Virus record (IMG/VR): IMGVR_UViG_2740892036_000008
DNA length: 9,196 nucleotides
Direction: 5' to 3' (one strand)
From: a virus
Lineage: Duplodnaviria; Heunggongvirae; Uroviricota; Caudoviricetes
In this document: positions 1,956-8,170 of the stretch, piece after piece
How the letters are laid out: every line of letters starts with the position of its first letter
How positions within the stretch are numbered: position 1 is the stretch's first letter
Notes under the pieces: model-generated
The model's database searches: none
Told to the model about the DNA's origin: nothing
What the model saw: only the letters and a program-made list of their open reading frames with translations
Translations under genes and position numbers: made by a program

Positions 1956-4715
1956 TTATTCTTCTGGCTGGCTGCTTTCCTCATCCATGAAGTTGAGCAC
2001 ATAAACGCGAATTTGCCGCCCTCCTTCCCTTACCCGCCCCTGATAACCTCGCCCGCTCGTTGGTGGTGTTAGCATTCCTGCATTCTTGAGAACTTCGGCA
2101 AACTGCCTGACATTAAAACCCCGTGCGATCTCCTGCTCAAATGTTGCCGGGAAGGTGTAGAAAATTATCGGGTCGCCGTCGTGGTTCCCCTTCTTCCTGT
2201 ACCCGGCTAAATCACGGATGGGTAAATCGCGCGGGTCATAACCCAGCGGCGCGAATCTACTCAGCCCATAGGCATTTAAAAACGCCTCCGTCTGCTCGAT
2301 GATCTGCTGGTGCTCTTTGTTCCCCGTGCCGAACTCTTTCAGCCATGCGTTATAGGTGTGCTGTATCGCATCCCGGCACGTTTGAGCATCCCAGCCAGTA
2401 ACCACGCCACCCAGCAGTAAAGCGGCCTCCAGAATGGCGAACCTCGCCCCTACACGGTGAACCTGTTCCCCATAGTCAGCAGGGATTAGACTTCGCCATC
2501 GGGCTTCACACTCACGAACGGCATCAATCGCCTGCTGCTGGTGGTCTGAAAGCCATCTAATCCACTCCCGCCCGGCAGCGCCATGATGGTGCTGGTAAGC
2601 GTCTTTCAGCGCGTCGGCGTGATCTTTCCCTGTCTGGTGCTCATGAAAGCGCACCGCCTTACTCAGCGGGATATTCAGCAGTCGCACCAGTTGCCCCGCT
2701 TTTGTCTTGCGTCCTGCGGTGGCGATGAACGTTTCTAAATCCATTTCCCCGGTGCTGATTGCCACGGTGCGCCAGCGTTTCAGATCCCGGTTGCCTCCTT
2801 CCTTTGCTCCCTGCAATTTCCCCACGCCGTTAAACAGGGCATAGGCAGACTGAGAAACGCTTATCGGGTCTGCGCCCTGTCCGACTTCATCCAGCGGCAT
2901 CAGCCCGTCATTGTGGGCGGCGGCCTCGTTTATCAGCCCCAGCGCCGTCCCATACCACGTCAGGCGCAAGGCATCAGGGTTGCCGTAAAGACTGCTCGCC
3001 ACGTTCTGCGTGGTTGTTTTCCCGGCGCTCGATTGCTCATAAAAATGAATCCCGAATCCGTCACGATCTGCCACCCCGATTAATGGCGCTGCCAGTGCTG
3101 CGGCGATGCCTGTCATCATCGCGTAGTTGCCGTATGCCAGCCGCGCAACACTGTTAAGCCAGCTTTCAGGCGTTCCTGCTACGGTATACCCGGCAGCGGC
3201 TGAACTGCGCCCGCTGAACAAAACAGGCCGCTGAGGTGTGCCGATGATTTCCCCGTCCGGCATGATGTATGCCCCACACTGCCAGCCTGTAGCATGAGCA
3301 ACGCGCCACAATTCACGCGAGCCGCTTCGCTGTAACCAGTCGGCAAGAATCGCCCGTAGGCTGTTTTTCGTTGTGACGTTGACGCCACCAGCTTTCAGGG
3401 TGCGCCAGCCTTCACGCTCGCCAATATCAGCCAGCGGGATAGCCGCTGTTGTCCGTATGCCTGCACCGAATGCCAGCCATGAGATAATAAGATACTGATC
3501 TTTGTCGTCGCGTCCCGTGCCGATAACCTCCAACGGTGAACATAACCAGCTTTCAGCGTTGATGATCTCCCCGCTTTCCTTGTCCACCTTCGGCGTTACC
3601 CAGAAAACGCCATCTTTTCGGCTCTCAATGTGGGGTTTTAGTGGGTCTTTCTCTGGATGGTCAGTTTTACCGCCCTCAATGGCCTGCAATCGTGGTTTAA
3701 CGGCTTCCCCTTGAATCTGGTACATCGAGTCGTTAAACGCAGCCGTAGCGACTTCCAGCCCGTTTTGCTGGTGGTGGTCGTTCCAGTCGGCTTTGTAGTC
3801 TGTCGGCGGCAGTGCCACCCATCCAGCCACGGACAAGGCGGCTTTCTCTGCGGCCTCCCTGCCTGTATTGGCTTCTCCGTTTTGGTGGTGGTCGTTGTCT
3901 GCGGCGATGATTATTTGTGCCTGTGGATACTTCCGGCGCATCACTTCGGCAACGGGTAGCAGGTTGCCCGCGTCAATTGCTGCCACTGCCAGCGCGTCCG
4001 GGCGCATCAGGTGAACTGAAAGGGCCGTCGCCAGCCCCTCGGCAATTAAAACGCTCTGCGGCGATTCTGGCGCGTTTACGGCGTGATATGCCCCGCGCTT
4101 TGCCGAACCCGTCAGAAGTCGCTTTTCTCCATGCGGTGTAATGGTCTGCGCTGCTGCCACTGCGCCGGATTCATCCACCAGCTCCAGCAATAACGAACCA
4201 TCTGGCATTAGCGGGTAATTAAACCCGGTCAGCCCTTTTGATTGCAGGTACTCAGCTTCGCCCTGTATGGCTCTCTGGCGCATTCCGGCATACAGACGGG
4301 AAAACGTAGCCCGGCGCTGCTCTGCGTCCTCTGCGGCCTTTTTCTGTCGCTCCTGCTCATGCCGCTGGCGGTCTGCGGCTAACTGCGTCTGTCTCTGGCT
4401 GGCAGCGTCTGGTGCTGGTTCTGCGGCCCGGTAATCAATACCCAGCACATCAGCGGCAAGGTGCGCCGCCTCCGTGGTGTCGCAGTTGTTAACCCGTTTG
4501 ATTAAATCCAGCCCATCGCCCGCGCCGCACTGATTGCAGATAAAGCTACCTCGCCCGTTGTCGTCGAATCTGAAACGGTCTTTCCCACCACATGCAGGGC
4601 AGGGGGCATGACGGCGCGATGAATCAGGAACGTCGATAGACAGGCCAGCCAGCACATAAGGCCATTTACCAGCGGCGGCGCTGGTCACTTCGCGGATAAT
4701 GTCGATATTACGCAT
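1956..4715 (-). CDS. primase-helicase, P4 alpha-like (zinc-ribbon primase + Toprim + P-loop helicase)
   Basis: 919 aa; ATG at 4715-4713 preceded by AGGGAGG 8 nt upstream; TAA at 1958-1956. N-terminal zinc ribbon CPACGGKDRFRFDDNGRGSFICNQCGAGDG; Toprim-like acidic motif IIIAADNDHHQNGEANTGREAAEKAA; Walker A EQSSAGKTT in the C-terminal half. Confidence 0.9.
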   Translation of the reverse strand: MRNIDIIREVTSAAAGKWPYVLAGLSIDVPDSSRRHAPCPACGGKDRFRFDDNGRGSFICNQCGAGDGLDLIKRVNNCDTTEAAHLAADVLGIDYRAAEPAPDAASQRQTQLAADRQRHEQERQKKAAEDAEQRRATFSRLYAGMRQRAIQGEAEYLQSKGLTGFNYPLMPDGSLLLELVDESGAVAAAQTITPHGEKRLLTGSAKRGAYHAVNAPESPQSVLIAEGLATALSVHLMRPDALAVAAIDAGNLLPVAEVMRRKYPQAQIIIAADNDHHQNGEANTGREAAEKAALSVAGWVALPPTDYKADWNDHHQQNGLEVATAAFNDSMYQIQGEAVKPRLQAIEGGKTDHPEKDPLKPHIESRKDGVFWVTPKVDKESGEIINAESWLCSPLEVIGTGRDDKDQYLIISWLAFGAGIRTTAAIPLADIGEREGWRTLKAGGVNVTTKNSLRAILADWLQRSGSRELWRVAHATGWQCGAYIMPDGEIIGTPQRPVLFSGRSSAAAGYTVAGTPESWLNSVARLAYGNYAMMTGIAAALAAPLIGVADRDGFGIHFYEQSSAGKTTTQNVASSLYGNPDALRLTWYGTALGLINEAAAHNDGLMPLDEVGQGADPISVSQSAYALFNGVGKLQGAKEGGNRDLKRWRTVAISTGEMDLETFIATAGRKTKAGQLVRLLNIPLSKAVRFHEHQTGKDHADALKDAYQHHHGAAGREWIRWLSDHQQQAIDAVRECEARWRSLIPADYGEQVHRVGARFAILEAALLLGGVVTGWDAQTCRDAIQHTYNAWLKEFGTGNKEHQQIIEQTEAFLNAYGLSRFAPLGYDPRDLPIRDLAGYRKKGNHDGDPIIFYTFPATFEQEIARGFNVRQFAEVLKNAGMLTPPTSGRGYQGRVREGGRQIRVYVLNFMDEESSQPEE

Positions 4716-4729
4716 TCGTATTACCTCCC

Positions 4730-5356
4730 TCAGTGCGCCGCTGGCATTTCAGGCAAGCCGTTTTCATTCAGATCAGCAATGAATCCATCATGCAGCTCTG
4801 CCAGCGTTTCACGTCCGAACGGGGTCAGCTCGCCGCGCTCCGTGTCGATCATGGCCTGATAAAAAACAATGGCGTTCGCCGTTCCCTGCTCAATGCCGTA
4901 GCGCTCAATCATTGCGCCCTCGATGTTATTCGCCATCGCCAGACGTTCCGCGAACGGGTAAACCACAATCCCCGCCGTGCCATTGGAGTAAATCGCTACT
5001 TTTGACGTTGTGCCGTCAGCCTCCGTGACGGTGGTTGTGCCGTTTTCGCGCTTCATCTCAGAAATGAACGTGGTAGCAATCAGCCAGCGCCACATAGTGA
5101 CGTTATGCTGCGCGGTAAAGTCGAACCAGCCACGCGCCCCGCCATCAGCAACGGCAAAATGTATGGCGTATCCGATATTTGGCGTATCGTCGTACTCTCC
5201 GGCATCAAGGCGGTTTACCGCGCTCTCGTAGCTGATAAGAGCAACCTGCTCATATCCCCCGGCATCATTGCGGGTCATGATATTGACGCCGTGCGGTGTG
5301 GCTTCGGCGTGTAATAAGTCGGCATTTCCCGATTTAATGGTCGGTGCGTTGCTCAT
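4730..5356 (-). CDS. hypothetical protein (208 aa)
   Basis: ATG at 5356-5354 with GGAGGG 6 nt upstream; start overlaps the stop of the upstream 87-aa ORF (ATGA); TGA at 4732-4730 sits inside the primase SD region. No family recognised. Confidence 0.6.
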   Translation of the reverse strand: MSNAPTIKSGNADLLHAEATPHGVNIMTRNDAGGYEQVALISYESAVNRLDAGEYDDTPNIGYAIHFAVADGGARGWFDFTAQHNVTMWRWLIATTFISEMKRENGTTTVTEADGTTSKVAIYSNGTAGIVVYPFAERLAMANNIEGAMIERYGIEQGTANAIVFYQAMIDTERGELTPFGRETLAELHDGFIADLNENGLPEMPAAH

Positions 5357-5616
5357 GCGCTGCCCTCCGCATCAATTCTGGCTATATCGACAATCGTCAG
5401 GACTTTACTCAGCCAGCAATACGCGATGGCTGCTTGCTCAACTTCGAGGAGTGGTAATAAATCGGTCATAACGTGAGCCAGCCCATTGCGGGCGCGGGTC
5501 ATGCGTTCTGCTGTTCGGTCTGCCAGCGTAAAATCATCCGGGTATGATTCTTTGCGAGATAGCATCGCTTCGGCTTCCAGCTCTGCCGGGTGGCGGTAGA
5601 TGGTATTTATGTTCAT
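5353..5616 (-). CDS. hypothetical protein (87 aa)
   Basis: ATG at 5616-5614 with GAGGTGG upstream; ATGA start/stop overlaps with both neighbours. No family recognised. Confidence 0.55.
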   Translation of the reverse strand: MNINTIYRHPAELEAEAMLSRKESYPDDFTLADRTAERMTRARNGLAHVMTDLLPLLEVEQAAIAYCWLSKVLTIVDIARIDAEGSA

Positions 5617-5792
5617 GCTGCCACCTCACGAATGCGGGTAATCTGGATGTGGGAAAGGCGTTCATTTCTGGCCTGATTTAGCGCCTCAGCTTTGGCGCTG
5701 ATCGCGCTGCGGGCGTCAACGATATAAACGAACTCGACTAATTCGCCGCTCCGGGCGGTGGCGCATCCTGCAACACGGAAGTAATTAAGCAT
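5613..5792 (-). CDS. hypothetical small protein (59 aa from ATG; 69 aa if the TTG at 5822 is used)
   Basis: ATG at 5792-5790 preceded by AGGGGG 5 nt upstream; overlaps the Icd-like stop by 8 nt. The ORF-track start at 5822 is TTG and lies inside the Icd-like CDS, so the ATG is preferred. Confidence 0.45.
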   Translation of the reverse strand: MLNYFRVAGCATARSGELVEFVYIVDARSAISAKAEALNQARNERLSHIQITRIREVAA

Positions 5793-5976
5793 GTGCGCCC
5801 CCTGTGCGAATACGTCCGGCAAAAAAGCAAACGTGATCCCGCGCCAGAATGCGGCGGGCTTCCTGCTCAGTTTCTGCGGCGATATGGTGAATTTTGGCGG
5901 TAATTGTCGGCATGTCGCGGCGAACGGCTGCGATTAACCAGATAAATTGTGGATTTTGGGTAGGGGTAGTAGCCAT
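5785..5976 (-). CDS. Icd-like host cell-division inhibitor family small protein (63 aa)
   Basis: ATG at 5976-5974 with GAGG 8 nt upstream; TAA at 5787-5785. Sequence MATTPTQNPQFIWLIAAVRRD...FAGRIRTGGAHA resembles the short Icd-like proteins found ahead of primase genes in P4-like elements (from memory). Only the C-terminal 63 codons of the 257-aa ORF in the track are taken as coding. Confidence 0.6.
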   Translation of the reverse strand: MATTPTQNPQFIWLIAAVRRDMPTITAKIHHIAAETEQEARRILARDHVCFFAGRIRTGGAHA

Positions 5977-6496
5977 GATGGCAGCCTCTATACAGTGAAT
6001 TTTGAATTCACCACCAAGAGACGCCAATCTCAGACTGGTGGTGAGCTGAACAAGGTTGGCGTAACCGGCCTGTATAGACACCGGCCTTCCTTTCGGAAGC
6101 CTCATCCAGCCCACCATAATTTGGGTGCGCAGGAATTTTGCCGACAAAAAAACACGCTTAGTGCGTGTCGGCACTATACAGGTTATCGGGACGCCAATCC
6201 CGGCACCTGATTTTGCAGGTGCGCTATAACCATAAACCGGGTTGGCGATAGTCGGCAAGCCCTTTTTTATGGACTCGCAAAACTCACCTTCGCGCGTGCG
6301 CGTACTGGTCGCAAAACTCGAAAAAAACTTAGGATTTATTAGGATTCGCAGCCCAATTCTCAGCCCAGAAAACGCCTCTAAAATGTCGTCATTTGTCGCA
6401 ACGGCGCGGCGATGAATGTCAGGTTTTGACAGGTTGTAAGGGTTAACATTTGTTAACAGGCTAGCCAGATTAAAGGCTTCTTTCTGGGCGGCAGGT
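5977..6496 (-). ncRNA. candidate structured leader / immunity-type antisense RNA region (C4/CI-like, boundaries unknown)
   Basis: 520 bp with no convincing ORF start on the transcribed strand. 9-bp perfect inverted repeat TCACCACCA/TGGTGGTGA (6008-6016 / 6036-6044, 19-nt loop); minus-strand hairpin CUUCC-GAAA-GGAAG (6086-6099); terminator-like hairpin at 6140-6172; tandem TTAGGATT (6329-6336, 6339-6346); paired GTTAAC palindromes (6442-6447, 6452-6457). Position ahead of an icd-like gene matches P1 immI (c4-icd-ant) and the P4 CI RNA leader. Confidence 0.3.
6140..6172 (-). terminator. intrinsic-terminator-like hairpin with U-tract inside the leader
   Basis: On the minus strand: stem ACACGC/GCGUGU (6163-6168 pairs with 6152-6157), 5-nt loop, followed by six U (forward A-run 6146-6151); flanked by a further inverted repeat GCCGAC/GTCGGC (6140-6145 / 6167-6172). 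About 170 nt upstream of the Icd-like start. Confidence 0.4.
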
Positions 6497-6679
6497 TCAT
6501 TCAGTATCACGGCGCACCTCCACGAACTCCTTAACGAATCTCTCCAAAGGCTGAACACATGGCGACTGATAGCCCTCGCGGTAAAAGGTCACTCGGTTAT
6601 GCTCGACGCGCTGTACGGTCACTACAGCCCCGTGCGAATCCTTGTAACGGCTTCCCGGCATCGGATTATGGTTACGCAT
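6497..6679 (-). CDS. small protein (60 aa), DUF4222-like (tentative)
   Basis: ATG at 6679-6677 with GGAGG 6 nt upstream; overlaps the antirepressor stop by 8 nt; TGA at 6499-6497. Pattern YKDSHGAVVTVQRVEHNRVTFYREGY resembles small prophage DUF4222 proteins as I recall them (not searched). Confidence 0.5.
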   Translation of the reverse strand: MRNHNPMPGSRYKDSHGAVVTVQRVEHNRVTFYREGYQSPCVQPLERFVKEFVEVRRDTE

Positions 6680-7505
6680 GGTTTACCTCCAGACGTTTAG
6701 CGAGCCAGCGTTGCGACAGGCGGGTGAGTTCTCCTTTGCGCTGCTCATATTCCATGCCCATATCAATTAACGTGATATTGGTGCTTTCGAGATATGAGAG
6801 GTGCTCAAGCTGTTCTGCGTTCATATGGTCGCGAGGTTCGCCAGAATAGCCATTTATCCGCGCCCACTGCTTAGCAGTTAGCCCACCAAGAACGATACGA
6901 GAAATCATATTGCTCTCGTTTGTGTAGTGGTGTTGCTGCGTCGTTTTACCCATCTCGGCACGGGCCATATTCAGCGCATCGCACATCGGCTTAAAGTTGT
7001 TTGCGGCACTGATACGGGCTTTTAGCTGGCGACGATAGCGGGCGGCGATTTCAGGCACGCTACGCTGTAATTCTTCCTCGCACTGGATGAAATAACGGCG
7101 GATAGCGCGGCCCTGTTCGGTGCGTTCGATCATTGCCAGTTCTTTCGCCATTCCGACACTTAACAGATAGTCTTTGCCGGGTCTGCCAGAGTGCTTAATC
7201 TTGCTGTAAGCCGCGCCATTCGGGCTTTTCCCCAAATTTGGGGAAATAGTTTTATGGACTGAGTAATCGTGCCCAATGGTGAAGTCATATTCAGAGATGC
7301 GATCAGTGATCCATGTAGAGAAGTCTTTTCCCACGCCCAACGCTTTGTGTAACGCTTTTGCGCTAACAATATTGGTTTCACGCCCACCGATATGACCAGG
7401 AATAACCGGGACAATTGCGGCAAATTCATTACCGTTAATTGTGCCCTGATAGGCGTTCAGATGAGGGGCGGCCTCAGAAATTAATCTGCTTTTTTCGATG
7501 TTCAT
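6672..7505 (-). CDS. phage antirepressor-like protein (Bro-N / KilAC-type domains, tentative)
   Basis: 277 aa; ATG at 7505-7503 with GGAG upstream; TAA at 6674-6672. Central motif DYLLSVGMAKELAMIERTEQGRAIRRYFIQCEEEL is characteristic of phage antirepressor (Ant/KilAC-type) proteins; N-terminal segment IVSAKALHKALGVGKDFSTWITDRI is compatible with a Bro-N/KilA-N-like fold. Confidence 0.65.
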   Translation of the reverse strand: MNIEKSRLISEAAPHLNAYQGTINGNEFAAIVPVIPGHIGGRETNIVSAKALHKALGVGKDFSTWITDRISEYDFTIGHDYSVHKTISPNLGKSPNGAAYSKIKHSGRPGKDYLLSVGMAKELAMIERTEQGRAIRRYFIQCEEELQRSVPEIAARYRRQLKARISAANNFKPMCDALNMARAEMGKTTQQHHYTNESNMISRIVLGGLTAKQWARINGYSGEPRDHMNAEQLEHLSYLESTNITLIDMGMEYEQRKGELTRLSQRWLAKRLEVNHA

Positions 7506-7517
7506 TTTCAGTCTCCG

Positions 7518-7952
7518 TTAGGCGGCGGTGAGATTGTCCGGGTATAGATTGAGAATGTCGGCAATTTCAGGCTGAGAAAGTCCCTGATAGCCCCCAGCGT
7601 CGGCGTTATGGTTCACAAGCCGAATAACTTTTAGAACGTCACCGCGCCCGGTAAAGCGATAGCGTAAATGTGACCCGATCCCGTCGGGATTCTTTTCGTC
7701 GATACGCTCTAACTGAATATCAAGCCTGCGTTCTAACTCGCTGGCGTAGTTCCTTCCAGACGAAAGGCGGCAGTAGCGCAGAATGTCGTTTTCTGTCCAT
7801 CCCTCTACCCCAGTGCGTAGCATATAGACGCGGGCGCGGTGCTTCTTCGGTGTGCGGCGTGGCGCTTGTGTGGTGGGCGCTGGTGGCGTAACATCAGATC
7901 CGCGAATATCTATGTTAGCCGCCTGCTGTCCGGGGCGGTTTTCTTTTTTCAT
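7518..7952 (-). CDS. hypothetical protein (144 aa), basic Pro/Thr-rich N-terminus
   Basis: ATG at 7952-7950 overlaps the AlpA stop (ATGA); AAGGTGG upstream; TAA at 7520-7518, 12 nt before the antirepressor start. No family recognised. Confidence 0.6.
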   Translation of the reverse strand: MKKENRPGQQAANIDIRGSDVTPPAPTTQAPRRTPKKHRARVYMLRTGVEGWTENDILRYCRLSSGRNYASELERRLDIQLERIDEKNPDGIGSHLRYRFTGRGDVLKVIRLVNHNADAGGYQGLSQPEIADILNLYPDNLTAA

Positions 7953-8170
7953 CAGGCCACCTTCCCGCGACGCTCTGCCAGCCAGTTGTTAATCTCTACC
8001 GCATCAAAGGCGGTAATCTTCTCGCCCAGCTTTACCGGGCGCGGCAGAACCCCATTGCGAACTTTGCGATCAATGGTGGAAACGCTAACGCCCAGCAATT
8101 CAGCAAGGCGGAAGCGTCGGATATAGCCAGATTGGGGGATTGTGTGGGTTGTTGCGTTATGTGTTGCCAT
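7952..8170 (-). CDS. alpA: AlpA-family phage transcriptional regulator (HTH, Vis/AlpA-like)
   Basis: 72 aa; ATG at 8170-8168. Sequence RRFRLAELLGVSVSTIDRKVRNGVLPRPVKLGEKITAFDAVEINNWLAERR matches the AlpA/Vis helix-turn-helix pattern. First gene of a tightly packed co-directional gene string. Confidence 0.8.
   Translation of the reverse strand: MATHNATTHTIPQSGYIRRFRLAELLGVSVSTIDRKVRNGVLPRPVKLGEKITAFDAVEINNWLAERRGKVA

Follow-up and report, generated by a model that had tools for sequence, protein, structure and literature searches.

The replication genes of phage P4 are silenced by the CI RNA through premature termination of transcription (PMC4825925), and the pair formed by the isrK and C4 RNA families corresponds in P4 to seqA and to the CI RNA (PMC3632133, PMC4825925). 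Beyond these RNAs, the annotated order of the P4 left operon is the old “cI ORF” (open reading frame, ORF), epsilon, ORF151, ORF106 (cnr) and alpha, and then crr, with overlaps of 8 nucleotides (nt) and 14 nt before alpha; in 90% of the P4-like elements the cnr family, which controls plasmid copy number, sits between epsilon and alpha (PMC8628076). Two further systems are relevant here: the immI operon of phages P1 and P7 (c4, icd, ant1/ant2), whose layout has been described (PMC8198154), and the isrK-orf45-anrP locus of Gifsy-1 in Salmonella, for which it was shown experimentally that translation of the leader ORF is needed for the downstream gene through translational coupling (PMC4825925). 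C4 and isrK matches have also been noted already in Gram-negative phage-inducible chromosomal islands (PICIs) (PMC10111431), and no description of an Icd-to-primase gene chain with its Cnr-like gene was found in the accessible literature on these elements. Such a chain is the subject of this work. It lies in a 9,196-nt stretch of viral DNA (hereafter the window; IMG/VR record IMGVR_UViG_2740892036_000008, Caudoviricetes), in which an Icd-like gene and three small genes named here orf59, orf87 and orf208 lead into a gene for a primase-helicase. It appears fairly probable that these four genes make up the translated 5' portion of a P4/P1-type replication operon, gated by a C4 antisense RNA, in a PICI-type island of Escherichia coli, and that orf208 encodes an enlarged homologue of Cnr.

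The resemblance to the P4 left operon includes the isrK (seqA) and C4 (CI) RNAs in the same order, an Icd-like first ORF, a homologous primase domain, overlapping small genes (one 8-nt overlap among them), a putative Cnr-type gene ending 14 nt before the primase, and iterons placed directly after the primase of the window, as crr is placed after alpha. Unlike P4, the chain has no homologue of epsilon or ORF151, its Cnr relative is twice as long and has an extra N-terminal domain and an inserted β-hairpin, the helicase half of the primase is of the DUF927 and not of the P4 alpha type, and the island lacks psu, sid and delta but carries AntA, DUF4222, a single-stranded DNA-binding protein (SSB) and PerC. 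The P4 analogy drawn in the original prediction, which had been made from the DNA letters and their reading frames, thus goes further than proposed in one respect, in that the operon is homologous (isrK/C4, the Icd-like gene, the primase N-terminus and the 14-nt junction), and falls short in another, as there is no epsilon-like gene. With immI of P1/P7 the locus shares the a' and b' loops of C4, the duplicated targets and, as first gene, an Icd that is targeted at its ribosome-binding site, whereas downstream of icd there is an antirepressor in P1, but two small genes, a Cnr-like gene and a primase-helicase in the window; Riedel et al. are said to have reported in 1993 that P1 ant is translationally coupled to icd. 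Gifsy-1 has in common with the window a short leader ORF and an isrK RNA that has a terminator of its own and read-through; however, its short IsrK activates translation in trans and its cargo is an antirepressor, while the cargo of the window consists of replication genes.

The proposed antisense-RNA switch

The key element of the locus, absent from the original prediction, is an antisense-RNA switch directly upstream of the Icd-like gene (Table 1), and this switch would explain why the genes of the chain are coupled. Both of its RNAs score well above the Rfam gathering thresholds: isrK is matched at 6147-6222 with 75.8 bits (threshold 50), the overlapping c4-a1b1 element (RF03163) at 6183-6235 with 48.4 bits (threshold 46.7), and the C4 RNA follows on the same strand. 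In the predicted fold of C4 there are the a' loop (UCUAUACAG, nt 44-52) and the b' segment (ACGCCAA, nt 60-66, single-stranded), and they show exact complementarity, over 9 nt for a'/a2 and over 7 nt for b'/b2, to targets preceding the Icd-like start, with second target copies within isrK. The a2 site overlaps the Shine-Dalgarno sequence of the Icd-like gene, AGAGG (about 5989-5985). A C4 RNA upstream on the same strand, duplicated target pairs and an Icd-like first ORF, three features of the C4/CI-type antisense immunity modules, are all found at this locus. Such modules also repress by blocking translation, with premature (Rho-dependent) termination as the consequence, and process C4 out of the primary transcript; for this feature the rut-like stretch described below is an indirect sign.

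The relationship between loops and targets could be followed in 16 loci with a mapped Icd-like start, i.e., the window plus 15 related loci, P4 included; besides the window, P4 and a Klebsiella plasmid record, the set holds relatives that belong to 11 genera. Among them there are 10 versions of a' and 5 of b', and a perfect complement is present in every case, at distances of -18 to -24 and -49 to -53 from the mapped start. This covariation, the decisive evidence, is the pattern that a working antisense RNA and its targets should show if they exist in many specificities, and so many co-varying C4 specificities imply, as far as can be judged from the sequences, distinct types of RNA immunity among related islands, co-resident elements and P4. 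More loop variants, with matching complements nearby, are seen in a seventeenth locus (L017; related loci are cited by such numbers), whose Icd-like start is not mapped.

Two further candidate elements lie upstream and downstream of the two RNAs. The candidate σ70 promoter scores 8/12, under the 9/12 threshold of the scan, and would start a transcript near 6222, the first base of isrK. The rut-like (Rho utilization-like) stretch covers the first ~80 nt of the Icd-like gene and is the most C-rich and G-poor part of the 4.3-kb operon RNA, 3.5 standard deviations above the operon mean, as would be expected of a Rho loading site. Weak Rfam matches to MIR2655 and petD were discarded as chance hits, that of MIR2655 falling on the iteron array.

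The gene chain and its counterparts in related loci

The original prediction described a chain of four overlapping genes, and its description proved accurate in every detail: the overlaps are 8 nt between the Icd-like gene and orf59, 4 nt (ATGA) between orf59 and orf87 and 4 nt (ATGA) between orf87 and orf208, the stop of orf208 is separated from the primase ATG by a 14-nt gap, and a Shine-Dalgarno sequence is found 5-8 nt before every start (in chain order, AGAGG, AGGGGG, GAGGTGG, GGAGGG and GGGAGGT). Its naming of the first gene as Icd-like is borne out by NCBIfam (NF033153, E 1.4e-20), and its choice of a start giving 63 amino acids (aa), at odds with the 241-aa RefSeq model, agrees with the lack of codon-level constraint upstream of that start (see below). 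The Icd-like product shares 41% identity with the last 65 aa of the old “cI ORF” of P4, with a MATT start in both, and its position is presumably that of P4 kil. Compared with homologues from other Enterobacterales, the ratio of non-synonymous to synonymous substitution rates (dN/dS) is 0.12-0.23 for the Icd-like gene, 0.29-0.57 for orf59, 0.15-0.34 for orf87 and 0.15-0.24 for orf208. These values indicate that all four small genes are under purifying selection, which argues that they are more than chance ORFs.

A single operon plan, made up of Icd, one to five small genes, orf208, an optional gene of ~113 aa and the primase, is common to 11 of the 12 related loci that were analysed; in the other one, L003, the copy is degraded. 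In those 11 loci nearly all the junctions are overlaps of 4 or 8 nt or gaps of 7-16 nt, despite the differing gene content. The small genes between Icd and orf208 belong to at least 8 families, which are mutually unrelated (no related pair was found when the small-ORF families were compared pairwise with hhalign) and are swapped freely yet overlapped. An orf87-type gene is present in 12 of 14 chains, while homologues of orf59 are limited to the window, L002, L012 and L025. Judging from this distribution, orf59 and orf87 are dispensable, exchangeable accessory cassettes. In the relatives orf208 stays before the primase.

Neither orf59 nor orf87 gave a match in Pfam, NCBIfam, PHROGs or PADLOC scans, and the search of the PDB with an orf87 profile returned only noise. 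The structure prediction for orf87 comprises three helices, including a long antiparallel helical hairpin, a fold too generic to be interpreted. A resemblance of orf59 to a 66-aa cassette family, noticed by eye, was rejected (hhalign 4%). Public records label homologues of orf59 “HAD family hydrolase” and those of orf87 “nicotinic acetylcholine receptor subunit beta”, names that are evidently spurious and have propagated. As for the optional ~113-aa gene (with a MITKNFRLNALANQY start and a GGNHA end), it lies between orf208 and the primase in L005-L008, L010-L012 and L014 (e.g., L007 6634-6975), overlaps the primase start by 8 nt, has a truncated copy in L003 and no family match, and is absent from the window; it was also considered as a Cnr homologue and rejected (hhalign 0.4%, against 13.7% for its match to orf208).

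Table 1. Features of the replication operon in the window (coordinates of the 9,196-nt stretch unless residues are given)
Feature	Position	Strand	Description and basis
Candidate σ70 promoter	6229-6258	minus	TTGCCG, 18-nt spacer, TATGGT; read by eye, putative
isrK / c4-a1b1 element (seqA in P4 terms)	6147-6235	minus	Rfam and complementary matches
Upstream C4 target copies in isrK	b1 6197-6191; a1 6182-6174	minus	b1 UUGGCGU; a1 CCUGUAUAG
Intrinsic terminator of the short isrK RNA	6145-6169	minus	7-bp stem followed by a U run; terminator scan and Rfam structure line
C4 antisense RNA (CI RNA in P4 terms)	6034-6121	minus	Rfam RF01695, 72.4 bits (gathering threshold 45)
Downstream C4 targets	5985-6027 (b2 6027-6021; a2 5995-5987)	minus	b2 UUGGCGU, in a hairpin loop; a2 CUGUAUAGA
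rut-like stretch	5893-5982	minus	C 36%, G 14%; composition scan
Icd-like leader gene	5785-5976	minus	63 aa, ATG start; first translated gene of the chain
orf59	5613-5792	minus	59 aa
orf87	5353-5616	minus	87 aa
orf208	4730-5356	minus	208 aa
Cnr-like (DUF5375-like) four-helix core of orf208	residues 84-198		Interrupted by a β-hairpin at 106-131; profile comparison and AlphaFold2
Primase-helicase gene	1956-4715	minus	919 aa, ATG start; last gene of the operon
Iteron array	1671-1930	both orientations	12 copies of the 9-mer TGTTGTCTC, directly downstream of the primase stop

orf208 and its relationship to Cnr

The relationship of orf208 to Cnr rests on profile comparison. Against the single P4 Cnr sequence, hhalign gives 87%, and against an alignment of five Cnr members 93.4% with an E-value of 2.5e-7, rising to 96.3% in the reciprocal direction; the five are diverse copies taken from PLSDB, IMG/VR having yielded near-identical copies only. 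The alignment pairs Cnr 10-104 with orf208 84-198 and skips the inserted β-hairpin. The real score of the pair is 45.3, compared with 11.4 ± 2.3 (maximum 19.2) in 200 column shuffles, and the Cnr profile found no match among the other small-gene families (≤3%). The AlphaFold2 model of orf208 (predicted local distance difference test, 92.7) adds to the Cnr-like core an N-terminal domain of ~80 residues. At the DNA level, orf208 and P4 cnr both end with a His codon and a stop, 14 nt before the primase ATG, in similar junction DNA (GCACTGA-GGAG), and the C-terminal His of orf208 is conserved. Residues 84-198 of orf208 can accordingly be described, on these comparisons, as a remote homologue of P4 Cnr/DUF5375, although the whole protein differs from the single-domain Cnr of ~106 aa in its 208 aa, its N-terminal domain and its inserted β-hairpin. 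The 208-aa protein, for which novelty had been suggested, is therefore not wholly novel.

orf208 also matches phrog_1515 (E 1.5e-48), a family that extends over 559 clusters at 90% identity and, in a library that was clustered at 50% identity, has 125 representatives; a profile search of the PDB with orf208 gave nothing but noise. For the search of related loci an alignment of 8 orf208 sequences was used, the family alignment of 49 sequences being too diverse. Of 27 loci, 22 have a primase match after the orf208 homologue, down to 38% identity. The primase-helicase itself matches phrog_1139 and has, according to Pfam, a zinc ribbon, a Toprim domain and DUF927; its N-terminal 330 aa are 35% identical to P4 alpha. 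In L004 (6637-9069) and L015 (6641-9082), an orf208 homologue stands before a full-length primase of the P4 alpha type (38-39% identity over ~800 aa) and not before a Toprim-DUF927 protein, which means that the helicase half has been swapped while orf208 and the primase domain were kept. Downstream of the primase, the 9-mer TGTTGTCTC has 12 matches where 1.7 are expected, a number that none of 200 shuffles reached, and the array probably serves as the origin or as a crr-like binding region for the primase-initiator.

Proposed mechanism and alternative explanations

The mechanism that we favour would operate as follows. Transcription from a candidate promoter near 6230-6258 would produce isrK/seqA and then the C4 (CI-like) antisense RNA, whose a' and b' loops would pair with a2 and b2 at the ribosome-binding site of the Icd-like gene, leaving it untranslated. 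The downstream genes would lose translation too, because their starts lie inside or just after the preceding stop codon, and the untranslated, C-rich start of the Icd-like gene would expose a Rho loading site, so that transcription would end before the primase and the island would stay quiescent. Once the block is relieved, ribosomes would pass through Icd, orf59, orf87, orf208 and the primase, and the element would replicate from the iteron array just downstream of the latter. Under this scheme the Icd-like gene would be a leader at the kil position, orf59 and orf87 exchangeable accessories, and orf208 the tuner of replication, most likely by binding the primase-initiator. The data show the RNA elements, the complementarity with its covariation, the overlaps of the genes and their conservation, the purifying selection, the homology to Cnr and the synteny with the primase; polarity through Rho, the switching on and off and what orf208 does biochemically are inferred.

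Several observations weigh against this scheme or limit its reach. In its helicase half (DUF927) the primase is unlike P4 alpha, and a contact of the Cnr-alpha type cannot simply be transferred for that reason. orf208 does not match Pfam DUF5375 (PF17345) at E-values up to 10, and only 2 of the 49 members of its family touch that model (E 0.16). Phage relatives of orf208 (in Stx phages, phiP27 and Klebsiella phages) are located in early-left regions and not beside replication genes, and its more distant homologues in genomes are not accompanied by C4 and isrK. A further layer of regulation is implied by the terminator of isrK, which stands between the promoter and C4. Finally, when accessibility was computed in search of occlusion, the internal start sites were no more structured than the background; coupling would consequently act by termination-reinitiation and polarity and not by unmasking, and obligatory coupling is not shown.

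How do other explanations fare against the same data? According to the original prediction, orf59, orf87 and perhaps orf208 would be helper-interference or host-takeover factors, the overlaps merely ensuring co-expression with the primase. The chain genes do occupy the slot of epsilon and ORF151 in P4, the cassettes turn over fast between islands, as is typical of genes engaging a changing partner, all four genes are under purifying selection, and relatives of orf208 reside in early-left accessory regions of temperate phages. However, BLAST found no match of the chain genes to P4 epsilon (Derepression family) or ORF151, hhalign gave ≤0.5%, and orf59, orf87 and orf208 have no significant match in Pfam, which does hold the P4 epsilon family (PF25738), or in PADLOC; furthermore, orf208 appears homologous to a replication regulator, orf87 is predicted as a generic helical hairpin, and many islands that are alike in other respects lack orf59 and orf87, so that these two would not be core to the life cycle. 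The epsilon-like manipulation of a helper that had been proposed thus finds no support where it can be tested, and a helper- or host-directed role for orf59 and orf87 is possible but unsupported; as an account of the chain as a whole, we regard interference as possible but doubtful. Could the overlaps be ordinary genome compaction instead, with C4 controlling only Icd, and perhaps transcription, and the downstream genes initiating independently? In the operons of bacteria and phages ATGA overlaps are frequent, every gene of the chain has its own strong Shine-Dalgarno sequence, and the internal start regions are as accessible as background. Against this, junctions of -4, -8 or <17 nt are kept across loci even where the genes have been replaced, the rut-like stretch falls exactly in the first ORF, and in Gifsy-1, at the homologous isrK locus, translation of the leader ORF is a prerequisite for the downstream gene (PMC4825925). 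Compaction alone is in our opinion an unlikely explanation.

A different kind of question concerns the extent of the first gene. The RefSeq/PGAP model is a 241-aa “Icd-like protein” that extends over 5977-6558 of the window (L001 16186-16911) and covers isrK and C4, which, if correct, would place the RNA matches inside a coding region. Long ORFs of this kind are modelled by PGAP and in several PHROG families, and the frame in phase with Icd is indeed open: of the 14 C4-bearing loci examined, 11 have a stop-free run of ~175-320 codons upstream, and in 8 of the 14 the frame has no stop in 600 nt, where either of the other two frames contains 5-16. The extension, nevertheless, shows ratios of non-synonymous to synonymous polymorphism (pN/pS) of 0.66-1.10, mostly 0.85-1.1, and differences spread evenly across the three codon positions, in contrast to the dN/dS of 0.12-0.23 of the 63-aa part. 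It is because the upstream extension has no codon-level constraint that the 63-aa gene is taken as the real one. Moreover, in L002, L012 and L014 the open frame matches the phase of the next gene and not that of Icd, the region holds two structured RNAs well above the Rfam thresholds, and a canonical Shine-Dalgarno sequence with an ATG at 5976 is flanked by C4 targets; in P4, the immunity factor is an RNA and not the protein of the equivalent “cI ORF”. The 241-aa model is hence very improbable. The same over-extension is seen in the Klebsiella record (“HAD family hydrolase”, 319 aa), in the P4 “cI ORF” and in a Stx phage. The stop-free frame, located at 5977-6590 in the window and in the same region of L004-L011, L015 and L021, may nonetheless let ribosomes from the upstream operon read through the switch. 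Taken further, this frame of ~200 codons would be a selected ribosome runway that bypasses immunity, which starts at the end of DUF4222, crosses isrK and C4 and reaches Icd (in three of the loci, the gene after it) and along which, when transcription comes from the upstream AlpA/AntA operon, coupled ribosomes may melt isrK and C4 and enter the chain; separately, the extra N-terminal domain of orf208 may convert a Cnr-type copy-number brake into a sensor that couples replication to a helper or host signal. Both proposals are quite speculative, and we would give them little credence at present.

The host island and related elements

An E. coli chromosomal island, present for example in strains D5 and PCN061, carries the sequence of the window at 100% identity, and matches occur in 114 of 5426 complete genomes. 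This island, of ~13 kb, is located between yicC and dinD and carries, in order, an integrase, a hypothetical gene, an AlpA-type helix-turn-helix (HTH) gene, orf144, AntA/AntB, DUF4222, the Icd-like gene, three hypotheticals, the primase, SSB, PerC and further genes. P4-like satellites have been defined by at least 5 of 7 core components (int, psu, delta, sid and alpA, together with epsilon and alpha; PMC8628076). In the island of E. coli D5 there are int, an AlpA-type HTH and a primase related to alpha in its N-terminal part only, and psu, sid, delta and epsilon were neither annotated in the full island nor found by Pfam or PHROGs; as these are missing, it is not a canonical P4-like satellite. 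Its size falls within the ~7-18 kb of Gram-negative PICIs, and like them it has an integrase, AlpA and a primase/replication module and no virion structural genes. The same gene set (integrase, AlpA, primase, AntA/AntB, Icd and PerC) has been catalogued for Gram-negative PICIs (PMC13612085), and the island is thus assigned, from its gene content, to the PICI type.

Further observations concern the surroundings of the operon. The upstream genes of the window (AlpA-type HTH, orf144, AntA/AntB and DUF4222; 6497-8170, minus strand) are packed with overlaps of 1 nt and 8 nt and one gap of 12 nt, which makes nearly the whole island a single run of genes on one strand. The int-alpA RNA motif (RF02996) precedes the AlpA-type HTH gene in L002, L004, L007, L010, L011, L013-L016, L021, L023-L025 and L027; it was not seen in the window, which stops within a 307-aa gene, before the integrase. 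In E. coli D5 (L001 6640-8641 and 19722-20981), two dinD genes border the island at one end and the integrase lies beside yicC at the other, and this dinD duplication may mark the attachment site. L002 (CP031370.2) is the Klebsiella pneumoniae record pKpvST101_3, a circle of 19,229 bp deposited as a non-mobilizable plasmid, which carries an integrase in addition to AlpA, AntA, isrK/C4, Icd, orf208 and a primase whose frame is apparently in three pieces; it is possibly the excised, replicating (episomal) form of such an island. Lastly, in the lambdoid Stx2a phage L116 (LC567842.1; 7680-9410), isrK and C4 lie in an over-called ORF, after which come a small overlapping ORF and, next, replication protein O and a helicase, so that C4-gated replication genes are not confined to satellites.

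Implications

The system is one of a known kind, and what is new is the Cnr link for a large protein family, the documented covariation of specificities and the corrected annotation. On the last point, hundreds of database entries are wrong, either because the Icd-like gene has been over-extended across two RNA genes or because orf87 and orf59 have been misnamed. The general picture of satellite biology is unchanged by these results, but the locus becomes interpretable: PICI-type islands that are common in enterobacteria would use the RNA-immunity logic of P4 and P1 to gate their own replication and, for the widespread orf208 family, a Cnr-like regulation of the primase-initiator offers a directly testable hypothesis on how that replication may be tuned.

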